NCBI RefSeq assembly: GCF_003790525.1
Contig: NZ_CP033635.1
Origin: Escherichia coli
GTDB lineage: Bacteria; Pseudomonadota; Gammaproteobacteria; Enterobacterales; Enterobacteriaceae
Length of the DNA stretch: 64,000 bases
Direction: 5' to 3' (one strand)
Below the pieces are notes generated by a model. The model was given only the letters and a program-made list of their open reading frames with translations. It searched no databases and was not told where the DNA came from. Positions 57,586-62,016 of the stretch are shown here, one piece after another; within the stretch, counting starts at the first letter, position 1, and each line of letters opens with the position of its first letter. Made by a program: the position numbers and the translations under genes.

Positions 57586-58503
57586 ATGCTTATCTTTATC
57601 CCTATTCTCATTTTTGTCGCGCTGGTCATTGTCGGCGCGGGCGTCAAAATCGTGCCGCAGGGCTATCAATGGACGGTAGAGCGTTTTGGTCGCTATACCA
57701 AAACGTTACAGCCAGGTCTAAGCCTAGTGGTGCCCTTTATGGATCGCATTGGTCGCAAGATCAATATGATGGAGCAAGTGCTCGACATCCCTTCCCAGGA
57801 AGTTATCTCGAAAGATAACGCCAACGTTACCATCGACGCCGTGTGCTTTATTCAGGTGATTGATGCCCCGCGCGCCGCTTATGAAGTCAGCAATCTGGAG
57901 CTGGCGATCATCAACCTGACCATGACTAACATCCGTACCGTGCTGGGTTCAATGGAACTTGATGAAATGCTCTCTCAGCGCGACAGCATCAACTCACGCC
58001 TGCTGCGTATTGTCGATGAGGCCACCAACCCGTGGGGGATTAAAGTCACCCGTATTGAAATTCGCGACGTGCGCCCACCGGCAGAGCTTATCTCTTCAAT
58101 GAACGCGCAGATGAAAGCGGAACGTACCAAACGCGCTTACATCCTTGAAGCGGAAGGGATCCGTCAGGCGGAAATCCTCAAAGCCGAAGGTGAAAAACAG
58201 TCGCAAATCCTGAAAGCGGAAGGTGAACGTCAGTCGGCATTCTTACAGGCCGAAGCGCGTGAACGTTCTGCCGAAGCGGAAGCCCGCGCCACCAAAATGG
58301 TGTCTGAAGCCATTGCCTCCGGCGATATTCAGGCGGTGAACTACTTCGTCGCACAGAAATACACCGAAGCGTTACAGCAGATCGGTTCCTCCAGTAACAG
58401 CAAAGTAGTGATGATGCCATTAGAGGCCAGCAGCCTGATGGGGTCGATTGCCGGGATTGCCGAGCTGGTGAAAGACAGCGCCAACAAACGGACTCAGCCA
58501 TGA
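57586..58503 (+). CDS. qmcA: QmcA (YbbK), SPFH/stomatin-family membrane protein
   Basis: 305-aa [40 protein letters not shown]. Confidence 0.9.
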
Positions 58504-58958
58504 TGGAGTTAATGGTCGTTCATCCACATATTTTCTGGCTCAGTCTCGGCGGGTTGCTGCTGGCAGCCGAGATGCTGGGCGGAAATGGTTATTTGTTGTG
58601 GAGCGGCGTGGCAGCGGTGATTACCGGCCTGGTGGTCTGGCTGGTGCCGCTGGGTTGGGAGTGGCAAGGGGTGATGTTTGCCATCCTGACGCTGCTCGCC
58701 GCCTGGCTGTGGTGGAAATGGTTGTCGCGGCGGGTGCGCGAACAAAAGCACAGCGACAGTCATTTAAACCAGCGCGGGCAGCAGCTGATTGGCCGACGTT
58801 TTGTGCTGGAATCTCCGCTGGTCAACGGGCGCGGTCATATGCGCGTCGGCGACAGTTCATGGCCTGTCAGCGCCAGCGAGGATCTCGGTGCAGGTACGCA
58901 TGTTGAAGTCATTGCGATAGAAGGGATAACGCTGATCATCCGTGCGGTCATCGCCTGA
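58500..58958 (+). CDS. ybbJ: YbbJ, NfeD-like membrane protein partner of QmcA
   Basis: 152-aa [31 protein letters not shown]; overlaps the qmcA stop by 4 bp. Confidence 0.88.
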
Positions 58959-59045
58959 TGCGACGCTGACGCGTCTTATCATGCCTACAAAATATGCCCG
59001 AATCGTAGGCCAGATAAGGCGCTTGCGCCGCATCCGGCATATAGC
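58959..59045. repeat. REP-like palindromic element at the left edge of the ybbJ-cueR insert
   Basis: GATGCGACGCTGACGCGTCTTATCATGCCTAC ... GTAGGCCAGATAAGGCGCTTGCGCCGCATCCGGCAT, a REP inverted pair. Confidence 0.75.
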
Positions 59046-59060
59046 CGAGTAGAGGCAAAA

Positions 59061-59423
59061 TTACTCTTCCCGGCCTTTACCCATACTTTTTTGGTCTTCA
59101 TCCGGATAGTGTTTTTTTAGATATTCCAGGACGTTTTTATTGACCTTGTGTTGGGTATACACCCACCCTTTCCAGTAATCAGGTTGGTCCAGGTAAACTT
59201 CTGGCGGAATGGTGAAATCAGAAAGCGTTAACCATTCGGCTAACAGATCGGGGTTTCGTTTCTGGATCAACTGCAACAGCATGATCAGCGACATGGCAGA
59301 GGCAGGAGCCGTACTATCGCCGCTTAAATACTTCCACACTGTCGACCGGTTCGAACGAAAAAGGATCGGTAGCAATGCCCGGTCCAGATTCATTTCATTA
59401 AAAATCTTCTCAAATTCATTCAT
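59061..59423 (-). CDS. Hypothetical 120-aa cytoplasmic protein, possible small DNA-binding regulator
   Basis: ORF with AGGAAA Shine-Dalgarno 6 nt upstream of the ATG; no signal peptide; segment RSNRSTVWKYLSG resembles the recognition helix of small phage-type HTH proteins; transcribed divergently from the adjacent 338-aa gene. I do not recognise the protein. Confidence 0.5.
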   Translation of the reverse strand: MNEFEKIFNEMNLDRALLPILFRSNRSTVWKYLSGDSTAPASAMSLIMLLQLIQKRNPDLLAEWLTLSDFTIPPEVYLDQPDYWKGWVYTQHKVNKNVLEYLKKHYPDEDQKSMGKGREE

Positions 59424-59788
59424 TTAAATTTCCTGCCTGGCGTAAACCTCTTAAAAATTGAGATTTATCAAAGAAACGCATTTTAGCACACATCAGGAAC
59501 CGCTTCACGTTTAGTCCAGAAACAGAATTTATTTCGCTTATCAAAACAAGTCTTTACTCTTTTTTACATTGAAAGAGCACGAAATAATTTCCTTTTTTAT
59601 TTATATAAGAAACTATTTTTGTTCCTTATTGGTGGTGTTTACGCTTACACAAGACAAAAATGCGCTTTACATCACACAAATGGCGGCGTAGATTTCGATC
59701 AAATTGCAACGCAGTTTATTTCTTAAAACAATATTATTTGTTTCTTATAGAAACATTAATGCGACTTATTTTGAACAAGAGAAAATGA

Positions 59789-60805
59789 ATGAAAACTGTA
59801 AACGTAGCTTTACTGGCACTCATAATTTCAGCAATATCCAGCCCTGTTGTTTTAGCTGGTGATACCATTGAAGCGGCGGCAACAGAGCTTTCAGCCATTA
59901 ACTCTGGCATGTCGCAATCGGAGATTGAGCAGAAGATTACCCGCTTTTTAGAACGCACAGACAACAGCCCCGCTGCGTATACCTATTTGACTGAACATCA
60001 CTACATCCCTTCTGAAACACCTGATACCACTCAGACTCCCACTGTCCAGACAGATCCTGACGCAGGACAAAAAACCGTTGCCGCTACAGGTGATGTACAG
60101 ACAACCGCCCGTTATCAGAGCATGATCAACGCCCGACAGTCTGCGGTAACTGATGCCCAGCAAACGCAAATTACAGAGCAACAGGCGCAGATCGTAGCCA
60201 CACAAAAAACGCTCGCCGCGACTGGAGATACGCAAAATACCGCGCATTATCAGGAGATGATTAATGCCAGACTGGCGGCTCAAAATGAGGCTAATCAGCG
60301 CACTACCACGGAACAAGGGCAGAAAATGAATGCACTGACAACCGATGTGGCAGCACAACAGCAAAAAGAAAGGGCTCAATACGATAAACAAATGCAAAGT
60401 CTGGCGCAGAAGTCTGTCCAGGCACATGAGCAAATTGAAAGTCTGAGACAAGATTCCGCACAAACGCAGCAACAGTTAACCAACACGCAAAAACGGGTCG
60501 CAGATAACAGCCAACAAATTAACACGCTCAATAACCATTTCGATTCTCTGAAAAACGAAGTTGAGGACAATCGTAAAGAAGCCAATGCGGGAACTGCATC
60601 TGCCATTGCTATCGCCTCACAACCACAGGTGAAAACCGGTGACGTGATGATGGTGTCAGCGGGAGCGGGAACGTTCAACGGTGAATCTGCGGTGTCTGTA
60701 GGAACATCTTTTAATGCCGGAACGCATACGGTACTTAAAGCAGGTATTTCTGCGGATACACAATCTGATTTCGGTGCGGGTGTCGGCGTGGGATATTCGT
60801 TCTAA
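59789..60805 (+). CDS. Small trimeric-autotransporter-like protein: signal peptide, Gln-rich coiled-coil stalk with two internal repeats, YadA-like C-terminal membrane anchor
   Basis: 338-aa ORF: N-terminal MKTVNVALLALIISAISSPVVLA-GD signal peptide; repeats QKTVAATGDVQTTARYQSMINAR and QKTLAATGDTQNTAHYQEMINAR; heptad-like stalk; C-terminus ANAGTASAIAIASQPQ...GAGVGVGYSF matches the four-strand YadA anchor pattern ending in an aromatic residue. Confidence 0.75.
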   Translation: MKTVNVALLALIISAISSPVVLAGDTIEAAATELSAINSGMSQSEIEQKITRFLERTDNSPAAYTYLTEHHYIPSETPDTTQTPTVQTDPDAGQKTVAATGDVQTTARYQSMINARQSAVTDAQQTQITEQQAQIVATQKTLAATGDTQNTAHYQEMINARLAAQNEANQRTTTEQGQKMNALTTDVAAQQQKERAQYDKQMQSLAQKSVQAHEQIESLRQDSAQTQQQLTNTQKRVADNSQQINTLNNHFDSLKNEVEDNRKEANAGTASAIAIASQPQVKTGDVMMVSAGAGTFNGESAVSVGTSFNAGTHTVLKAGISADTQSDFGAGVGVGYSF

Positions 60806-60858
60806 TTTTAACAGCAATTTCTTATTCGCAATTTTCCGCACATTATTTAAGGTTAACA

Positions 60859-61281
60859 ATGATGAATAGCTCCATTAAATCGTTTTCCCTGCTGGCGGTT
60901 ATATTACTGGCTGGCTGTAGTTCACCCACTTCCCGCATCGCAGATTGCCAGGCGCAGGGCGTCAGCCATGACACCTGTTATCTCGCAGAACAGCAGCGTC
61001 AGACGGCTATTTTAAGTGCATCCGAGGCGCAGGCATTTAAAAATGCAGAAGCCGCACAACATGCCCAGGCGGCAAAGAAAGCCATTTATAAAGGATTTGG
61101 CATGACCTTTAGAATGAGCAGTAAGAACTTTGCTTATCTCAATGATTCATTATGTGCAATTGATGAAGACAATAAAGATGCCACTGTTTATCAGTCAGGT
61201 CTTTATAACGTCATTGTTTATCACCACACGGGAAAAGTCGCCTTAATGAAGGAAGGTCAGTTTGTGGGTTATTTAAAATGA
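60859..61281 (+). CDS. Hypothetical lipoprotein (140 aa)
   Basis: Signal peptide with lipobox LLAG-C (Cys20), three further Cys; AAGG ribosome-binding site upstream; 53 bp downstream of the autotransporter-like gene. Confidence 0.6.
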   Translation: MMNSSIKSFSLLAVILLAGCSSPTSRIADCQAQGVSHDTCYLAEQQRQTAILSASEAQAFKNAEAAQHAQAAKKAIYKGFGMTFRMSSKNFAYLNDSLCAIDEDNKDATVYQSGLYNVIVYHHTGKVALMKEGQFVGYLK

Positions 61282-61481
61282 AGGAGCAAAGGAAAATCCC
61301 CCTGACGCATATTATGATTATCGGTGCGTTTATTTTTGCCTTCTTGCAAGTGGTGTTATTAGCCTCCCTGGTTCACGCTGTGAATGTTAACAACGAAATC
61401 CAGGAAGGCTTATTTCAGTCGGGGCGCATTATGGTAGAAAGTTTGCAGCATATTCTTTCGGTGCAAACGGGGATTAACTGA
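61278..61481 (+). CDS. Hypothetical small single-pass membrane protein (67 aa)
   Basis: ATG overlaps the lipoprotein stop (ATGA), with AAGGAG inside the upstream gene; one hydrophobic helix IMIIGAFIFAFLQVVLLASLV. Confidence 0.45.
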   Translation: MKEQRKIPLTHIMIIGAFIFAFLQVVLLASLVHAVNVNNEIQEGLFQSGRIMVESLQHILSVQTGIN

Positions 61482-61484
61482 TTT

Positions 61485-61892
61485 TCACCCCGCCCGATGA
61501 TGACAGCAGCCGGAGAGATTTTCGATAATCGGGCAGTCGGCGCTGTCATCACCGGGGCAGGCATTCGCCAGCGCCAGTAGCTGGTTGCGCATGGATTGCA
61601 GTTCTTCGATATGCCGTTCGATCTCCGCTACCTTCTCCAACGTACGACGTTTGACGTCGGCACTGTGACGCTGCGGATCGTTAAACAGATTCACCAGCTC
61701 GCCGCTCTCTTCCAGGTTAAAGCCCACCTGGCGTGCCTGCCGCAGTAAGGTCAGTTCGTTGAGATGCTGCTGCGTGTAGGTTCGATAACCATTTTCGCTG
61801 CGCATCGGCGGCGTCACCAGCCCCTTCTCTTCATAGAAGCGGATTGCTTTGCTGGTCAGGCCGGTAATTTTTGCTACATCGCTAATGTTCAT
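61485..61892 (-). CDS. cueR: CueR, MerR-family copper-responsive regulator
   Basis: 135-aa [28 protein letters not shown] with C-terminal metal-binding Cys pair ([10 protein letters not shown]). Confidence 0.92.
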
Positions 61893-62016
61893 CGTTCGCG
61901 CAACGCCTCCTGTGCTTTGTTAAAGGGTTTCAACAAATATTCAAGCACGTTTTTTTGCCAGTGCGAATATCGACCGCCACCACAATAATACAGGAAGTAC
62001 TGCGCACAGAGAGGTG

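Follow-up and report, generated by a model that had tools for sequence, protein, structure and literature searches.

Short coiled-coil trimeric autotransporters (TAAs) such as NadA, DsrA, HadA and UspA2 are proteins of 250-400 amino acids (aa) in which an N-terminal signal peptide is followed by a coiled-coil passenger, a membrane anchor of the Pfam family PF03895 and a terminal aromatic residue. All of these features recur in the 338-aa product of an open reading frame (ORF) that begins with ATG and occupies positions 59789-60805 on the plus strand of a 64,000-nucleotide stretch of DNA from Escherichia coli SMS-3-5 (contig NZ_CP033635.1, assembly GCF_003790525.1; 100% identity to that strain; hereafter, the window). 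With high confidence, we assign this ORF to the type Vc trimeric autotransporters of the outer membrane. The protein belongs to a very large family, of which it is an unremarkable small representative, and it is already annotated as such, its RefSeq entry (WP_000859803.1) bearing the product name 'YadA family autotransporter adhesin'. The same gene has been published as GmrA, for which a cytoplasmic, DNA-binding function was proposed that conflicts with every feature of sequence and structure we found.

Compared with the short TAAs named above, the passenger has no detectable sequence in common beyond the pre-anchor helix and the anchor, and at its predicted tip a three-helix domain on a Pro/Thr linker takes the place of a YadA-type head, NadA wings or a neck. 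The best matches in sequence and fold are the anchors of Hia, AtaA and YadA (PDB 2GR7, 3EMO, 9VNJ and 2LME), which cover the pore helix plus four strands (aa 241-338) at a structural-alignment identity of ~22-26%, whereas the passengers of these proteins are unrelated and, in Hia and AtaA, far larger. The plasmid- and prophage-encoded E. coli TAAs Saa and Eib share with the 338-aa protein a small size and polymorphism in repeat number, but the gene described here was chromosomal in all 1382 genomes carrying it. A close kinship with Saa and Eib was considered and rejected: in tblastn searches of plasmids and phages, matches stayed below 60% identity and spanned no more than 57% of the protein, at its C-terminal end, with similarity limited to the anchor and the adjacent coiled coil. 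Two E. coli records of chromosome size, kept among the plasmids, were the exception. Ogura et al. (2007; PMC2323221) listed ECs0548, located in S-loop 43 of O157 Sakai, absent from K-12 and present in UTI89 and avian pathogenic E. coli (APEC), among adhesion genes as a 'Saa-like protein'; from the island and the description, we take ECs0548 to be the same gene.

Membrane anchor and fold

The Pfam model YadA_anchor (PF03895) matches aa 279-338 over its full length (model positions 1-60 of 60; independent E-value 2.6e-11), and the same match is present in a 703-aa allele described below. When all PDB chains were searched with phmmer, the significant matches were TAA anchors only (AtaA, 5.6e-7; Hia, 4.7e-6 and 1.5e-5; YadA, 0.026), with alignments running from the pre-anchor helix through the last strand. 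An AlphaFold2 monomer model built from 53 homologues (mean predicted local distance difference test score, pLDDT, 73) consists of a three-helix domain (residues 27-69, pLDDT ~84), a linker, a long helix (102-276) and four strands (287-296, 299-309, 315-325 and 332-337). In a Foldseek search of the PDB, the top four matches to this model were the membrane anchors of Hia and YadA (probability 1.00; target template modeling score 0.59-0.68). In addition, a PHROG family labeled 'adhesin' matches aa 95-338 (1.1e-21), and the chain ends in ...GVGVGYSF, i.e. with the C-terminal aromatic residue of a type Vc β-signal. Thus, the protein combines a YadA-like anchor of four predicted strands per chain with further hallmarks of type Vc secretion, namely a Sec signal peptide by rule-based reading and a coiled coil that directly precedes the anchor and would fill its pore, as judged from periodicity, the modeled helix and the alignment to Hia and AtaA.

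An earlier note on the window, made from its sequence, had described a miniature TAA-like protein and had proposed a search for the YadA anchor and a predicted fold able to form a trimeric barrel as its test. The Pfam match and the resemblance of the four-strand monomer to the Hia and YadA anchors bear this out, and the ORF boundaries, signal peptide, repeats, heptad segment and anchor it had read were all recovered where it had placed them. Its remark that the protein is far smaller than classical TAAs holds relative to UpaG, EhaG and SadA but not for the family at large. In an exhaustive search of 1.84 billion representative sequences (E <= 1e-3), 1372 representative clusters matched; many of the best 150 are 250-400 aa long, and the best stretches listed for these 150, fragments aside, all end at the protein C-terminus. 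TAAs of this size are therefore common.

Predicted export signal, tip and stalk

The N-terminus reads MKTVNVALLALIISAISSPVVLA followed by GD, with a lysine at position 2, a hydrophobic core at aa 4-20, and valine and alanine at -3 and -1 of the predicted cleavage site. Homologues keep this pattern (e.g., SPSAFA before GD), and residues 1-24 have a pLDDT below 50 in the model, in agreement with the signal peptide with an AxA-type site read in the earlier note. The small three-helix domain that follows is conserved in the long alleles and in a Pseudocitrobacter homologue; it matched no known TAA head profile and no Pfam family, and in the model it would form the distal tip of a fiber. The Pro/Thr-rich stretch behind it, modeled as disordered over residues 75-101, differs in sequence and length among alleles (for feature coordinates, see Table 1).

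Table 1 Features of the 338-aa TAA gene and of the surrounding island, in window coordinates
Feature	Position	Strand	Basis
Type Vc trimeric autotransporter (TAA) gene, 338 aa (very likely)	59789..60805	+	WP_000859803.1; orthologue of z0639/'gmrA'
Sec signal peptide, aa 1-23, predicted cleavage between VLA and GD	59789..59857	+	n/h/c regions, -3/-1 rule
Small three-helix N-terminal domain (helices 27-34, 43-56, 61-69)	59858..60010	+	AlphaFold2 pLDDT about 83-85
Pro/Thr-rich linker, predicted disordered, aa 75-93	60011..60067	+	pLDDT 31-55, without secondary structure
Stalk repeat 1, aa 94-138, QKTVAATGDVQTTARYQSMINAR...	60068..60202	+	Pairwise alignment, DNA diagonal scan
Stalk repeat 2, aa 139-183, QKTLAATGDTQNTAHYQEMINAR...	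60203..60337	+	Pairwise alignment, DNA diagonal scan
Heptad coiled-coil stalk running into barrel, aa 184-276	60338..60616	+	Periodicity, AlphaFold2 helix
YadA-type membrane anchor, aa 279-338, four β-strands ending GYSF	60623..60802	+	PF03895, PDB sequence and fold matches
Low-GC genomic island between ybbJ and cueR = O-island 29 (S-loop 43) of O157:H7	58959..61484	.	OI-29 primer arms, GC
AT-rich (30-33% GC) divergent intergenic region	59424..59788	.	Composition
120-aa gene, divergent, z0640 orthologue	59061..59423	-	ORF; z0640 primer maps 59423-59460
140-aa lipoprotein, z0638 orthologue, lipobox LLAGC, helical hairpin then 8-stranded β domain	60859..61281	+	
67-aa single-pass membrane protein gene	61278..61481	+	ORF coordinates

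The stalk opens with two diverged direct repeats of 45 residues, which proved real, with 24 of 38 aligned residues identical (pairwise E = 1e-14) and 79 of 135 bases identical at the DNA level; no other diagonal within the ORF is stronger (z = 7.3). Being too diverged, the 135-nt duplication was missed by Tandem Repeats Finder and a DNA repeat finder, and it took an explicit diagonal scan to detect it. Between the repeats, the first and second codon positions each agree at 69% and the third at 38%, a pattern that points to an old duplication kept at the protein level. Each repeat opens with a single copy of the motif V/L-A-A-T-G-D-V/T-Q-T, which is kept in homologues from other genera, in an enterobacterial contig (L009) and in the long alleles. 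In the AlphaFold2 model, the long helix starts at D102, right after the first T-G-D, and its sole break, G146-D147, falls on the T-G-D of repeat 2. No 3.5-residue periodicity was detected over aa 94-183. The T-G-D motifs resemble the nonad β-layer motifs of α/β coiled coils, MATKDDIAN and IENKADKAD (PMC4786415), and may thus mark β-layers.

From residue 184 onward, the stalk has the character of a regular coiled coil. Hydrophobicity peaks at a period of 3.50 residues over aa 184-276, where the modeled helix runs unbroken up to residue 276 with a pLDDT of 85-96, in agreement with the Gln-rich heptad segment of the earlier reading. If fully helical, the ~175 helical residues (aa 102-276) would extend over roughly 25 nm, a reach close to that of YadA, so that 'miniature' would fit the mass of this TAA more than its reach. 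On the opposite strand, a 174-aa open frame overlaps the stalk region (window positions 59948-60472); it probably arises from the Gln/Ala/Thr-rich codon usage of the sense strand and is unlikely to be a gene.

Following the established TAA pathway, the 23-residue signal peptide would direct Sec export, and in the periplasm the four C-terminal strands (aa 287-337) of each of three chains would be assembled by the β-barrel assembly machinery (BAM) into a 12-stranded barrel, with the three pre-anchor helices passing through its pore and the passenger folding outside as a parallel trimeric coiled coil. Given a passenger with no head that Pfam recognizes, the mature protein would be mostly stalk, interrupted at the two conserved T-G-D motifs and tipped by the small three-helix domain on its flexible linker. 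The most likely function of such a surface fiber is to bind a ligand on host or bacterial cells or to protect the cell that bears it. Short coiled-coil TAAs, including NadA, DsrA, UspA2 and the Eibs, typically confer serum resistance or autoaggregation, or bind a soluble host protein.

Distribution and allele variation

Members of the family were found in 1382 of 5426 complete E. coli genomes, at a median of one and at most two places per genome, and the match covers at least 80% of the gene in 1027 of them. All full-length matches among those listed represent a short allele of exactly 1017 bp with 96-100% identity to the window's gene; intact and of the same length in each listed carrier, this allele is therefore maintained. 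The other carriers have a diverged lineage, which at the protein level is about 73-76% identical across the C-terminal three quarters, contains one to three copies of a 123-residue stalk module and encodes proteins of 471-709 aa. In strain MINF_7C, the module array has a Tandem Repeats Finder period of 369 nt and 2.7 copies with 96% matches. Such modular length variation is usual for TAA stalks. Variation also affects the 45-residue T-G-D repeat, of which an E. ruysiae allele has three copies and another allele shows a partial deletion of one. The earlier suggestion that repeat number varies between strains thus applies across the family but not within the short allele.

As for annotation of the long alleles, RefSeq lists a 349-aa 'YadA-like family protein' from an internal start in both MINF_7C (L003, 1756-3885) and strain 4750 (L005, 1673-3106); the open frames encode 709/703 and 477/471 aa, respectively, with signal peptide and 123-residue modules.

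The gene published as GmrA

Yang et al. (2018; PMC5826968) gave z0639 the name 'GmrA' and described its product as a transcriptional activator binding the fliA promoter. Their primers locate the gene precisely. One knockout arm, GAAACATTAATACGACTTATTTTGAACAAGAGAAAATGAATG, matches 59750-59791, its last bases falling on the start codon of the 338-aa ORF, and the arm designed for strain E2348/69 matches 60806-60843 in reverse complement, immediately behind the stop codon. For expression in pET28a, the forward primer opens with ATGAAAACTGTAAACGTAGCTTTA (M-K-T-V-N-V-A-L), the start of the ORF, and the 3xFLAG reverse primer ends on its G-V-G-Y-S-F codons. z0639/GmrA is therefore unambiguously the 338-aa ORF. 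The O157:H7 alleles are 1017 bp long and 96% identical to it in DNA sequence, and SMS-3-5 itself figures in the strain list that the same paper gives for O-island 29 (OI-29). Passages on GmrA in two O-island reviews (PMC10877973, PMC8565820) repeat its description as a DNA-binding activator of fliA; our literature search returned no paper calling GmrA a TAA, and the passages on GmrA in the two papers that contain both 'GmrA' and 'autotransporter', which are O-island reviews, treat it as a regulator only.

Searches of Pfam-A, NCBIfam, PHROGs and PADLOC revealed no DNA-binding family in the 338-aa protein, be it a helix-turn-helix (HTH), winged HTH or ribbon-helix-helix domain. Apart from the anchor, matches were sub-threshold only and concerned the coiled-coil arms of SMC, JetC and DndD (for SMC_prok_B, 24 bits compared with a curated cut-off of 567); an SMC-type coiled-coil match of this kind may be what the published CDD search showed. 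Likewise, a signal peptide plus anchor predicts export instead of the cytoplasmic location of a transcription factor. According to the primers (PMC5826968), the His6 tag had been placed before the signal peptide and the 3xFLAG tag after the terminal phenylalanine, i.e. behind the β-signal. Both tags would keep the protein from the outer membrane by blocking export or assembly, and the binding assays therefore probably examined a mislocalized coiled-coil protein. Very probably, then, the published identity of the gene as a transcription factor is wrong, or at best indirect.

Competing explanations

Several observations weigh against assigning the gene to surface TAAs. None of the Pfam profiles for TAA heads, connectors and stalks (YadA_head/Hep_Hag, YadA_stalk, neck) matched the 338-aa or the 703-aa allele at E <= 10; short TAAs without a classical head exist, and we therefore treated a head profile as not required for membership. 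With the repeat region as the query, phmmer retrieved nothing relevant from the PDB and no match to the solved β-layer constructs, the β-layer idea drawing on the likeness of the motifs and on where the monomer model interrupts its helix. Deletion of OI-29 in O157:H7 left adherence to HeLa and Caco-2 cells unchanged (PMC5826968), which argues against a major role in epithelial adhesion under those conditions; the protein is probably not a major epithelial adhesin. Finally, Yang et al. report electrophoretic mobility shift assays (EMSA), chromatin immunoprecipitation with quantitative PCR (ChIP-qPCR) and complementation, covering several strains, in favor of an action at the fliA promoter (PMC5826968), and these data are not explained away computationally. 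They make the case for the gene as published, a cytoplasmic activator that binds the fliA promoter directly and switches on flagellar genes: deletion of gmrA lowered motility, flagellation and expression of fliC, motA and fliA, all restored by gmrA alone, orthologous deletions in eight representative strains reduced motility and fliC expression, His-tagged protein shifted a fliA promoter fragment, FLAG-tagged protein yielded ChIP-qPCR enrichment, and the authors cite a CDD-predicted DNA-binding domain (PMC5826968). Yet, with its signal peptide and complete YadA anchor, the native product should leave the cytoplasm, the four profile libraries offer no DNA-binding family beyond the generic coiled-coil match to SMC_prok_B, and both binding assays, we infer, used export- or assembly-defective protein. 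We hence regard direct activity as a transcription factor at the fliA promoter as unlikely and the published account as highly improbable; if real, the motility phenotype of z0639/gmrA mutants must be indirect.

An indirect route would leave the protein a surface TAA and the motility effect genuine, with the fiber (or the operon transcript) acting through envelope or surface signaling on flagellar regulation. Complemented genetics and a phenotype repeated in several strains are harder to dismiss than the binding assays, and the three island genes are co-regulated and switched off upon host-cell contact (PMC5826968, Supplementary Table S3); this route also accommodates the sequence evidence for a TAA. 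On the other hand, nothing in the sequence suggests a signaling domain, and in the mutants the marker or polarity may have disturbed the lipoprotein and membrane-protein genes downstream. We know of no mechanism linking the loss of a TAA to reduced fliA transcription, and consider this route possible but somewhat unlikely. With respect to polarity, deletion of z0638, the lipoprotein gene, had no phenotype by itself (PMC5826968). Hardly credible is the view that the 338-aa gene has decayed from the longer (471-709 aa) alleles and lost its function, even if it lacks the 123-residue modules of the other lineage and the island deletion showed no adherence phenotype. The signal peptide, the register of the stalk and the anchor are each undamaged, the 1017-bp length and high identity recur in the carriers among the matches listed, with at least 80% of the gene matched in more than a thousand genomes, the repeats differ mostly at third codon positions, as expected under purifying selection, and ~73% identity to the long alleles over shared parts speaks for a separate lineage and not a recent deletion. 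Moreover, the gene is transcribed in O157:H7, at 96 reads per kilobase per million mapped reads (RPKM; PMC5826968 supplement).

For the family, the gene changes nothing: it is a small TAA with a correct annotation, carried by roughly one in four complete E. coli genomes. The useful new point concerns the published identity of the gene, since what has been reviewed as a fliA activator bears a signal peptide together with an anchor for the outer membrane. Those who build regulatory networks, or select vaccine candidates and adhesins in enterohemorrhagic (EHEC), extraintestinal pathogenic (ExPEC), avian pathogenic and neonatal-meningitis (NMEC) E. coli, should treat GmrA as an uncharacterized surface protein. 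The motility phenotype, if true, would reveal an unrecognized link between a surface fiber and flagellar expression.

Island and neighboring genes

The TAA gene is one of four ORFs, together with those for the 120-aa, 140-aa and 67-aa proteins of Table 1, in a 2.5-kb island flanked by ybbJ (58500-58958) and cueR (61485-61892, minus strand). Primer arms used to delete OI-29 (PMC5826968) map with 0 mismatches to 58911-58949 at the 3′ end of ybbJ and to 61485-61522 at the 3′ end of cueR, and the GC content is 0.30-0.48 inside the island compared with 0.53-0.64 in the flanks. In 1374 of the 5426 genomes, matches span at least 80% of the island. Promoters of the TAA operon and of the divergent 120-aa gene presumably lie in the AT-rich intergenic region between them; a promoter scan gave a single, weak sigma-70-like match (59666-59694, plus strand), with no more matches than in shuffled sequence or by chance, and a terminator scan downstream of the TAA gene gave nothing convincing.

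Homologues of the 120-aa gene occupy the same position in Pseudocitrobacter faecalis (L007) and in the enterobacterial contig. The sole match of its product was sub-threshold, to the C-terminal HTH part of Pfam MqsA_antitoxin (E = 0.12), and none was significant in NCBIfam, PHROGs or PADLOC. That this protein is the HTH regulator of the island was considered and rejected, as hhalign against an MqsA sequence gave a probability below 1%. If any island protein binds DNA, it would nevertheless be the better candidate, on weak evidence; in the literature, deletion of z0640 had no motility phenotype.

The lipoprotein gene starts 53 bp downstream of the TAA gene, and its stop is overlapped by 4 nt by the start of the 67-aa gene. 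In Salmonella, the TAA SadA has an export helper in the trimeric lipoprotein SadB. The present locus likewise places a TAA gene beside a small lipoprotein gene of the same orientation, whose product has a helical N-terminal part and a C-terminal β domain; this product (60859-61281) showed no homology to SadB, no SadB fold and no obligate pairing with a TAA. All four island genes have homologues grouped in P. faecalis, next to a large serine recombinase, the enterobacterial contig has the same four-gene cassette on the other side of qmcA-ybbJ, and Enterobacter asburiae has TAA and lipoprotein in an unrelated neighborhood. Homologues of the 67-aa protein follow the lipoprotein in the first two, and similarly placed small ORFs occur in two further loci (L013, L015). 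In five further contexts, more distant homologues of the lipoprotein occur by themselves, and the lipoprotein is therefore not an obligate TAA partner. The cassette is a mobile unit. In P. faecalis, the recombinase gene lies ~1.5 kb downstream of the lipoprotein gene, which suggests a possible means of movement, and an extra 588-aa ORF without Pfam matches (L007, 2766-4532) separates TAA and lipoprotein. More speculatively, and in our view quite unlikely as a whole, the island could be a conserved mobile four-gene surface module in which the lipoprotein and the 67-aa protein are needed for display or anchoring of the fiber, or couple its state to regulation as an indirect envelope-signaling route to the motility phenotype, with the T-G-D motifs acting as β-layers that rotate the stalk register.

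Between the ybbJ stop codon and the 120-aa gene (58958-59045), there are palindromic units (GATGCGACGCTGACGCGTCTTATCATGCCTACA ... GTAGGCCAGATAAGGCGCTTGCGCCGCATCCGGCA) of the repetitive extragenic palindrome/bacterial interspersed mosaic element (REP/BIME) type, which may explain why the median number of places matched in an E. coli genome was 6 for a 2.7-kb query. On the other flank, RefSeq annotates a frameshifted, N-terminally truncated pseudogene abutting cueR (61889-61986). At this position, O157:H7 and MINF_7C encode an HlyD-family type I secretion adaptor of an RTX locus, and SMS-3-5 thus seems to keep only a scar of that neighboring island.

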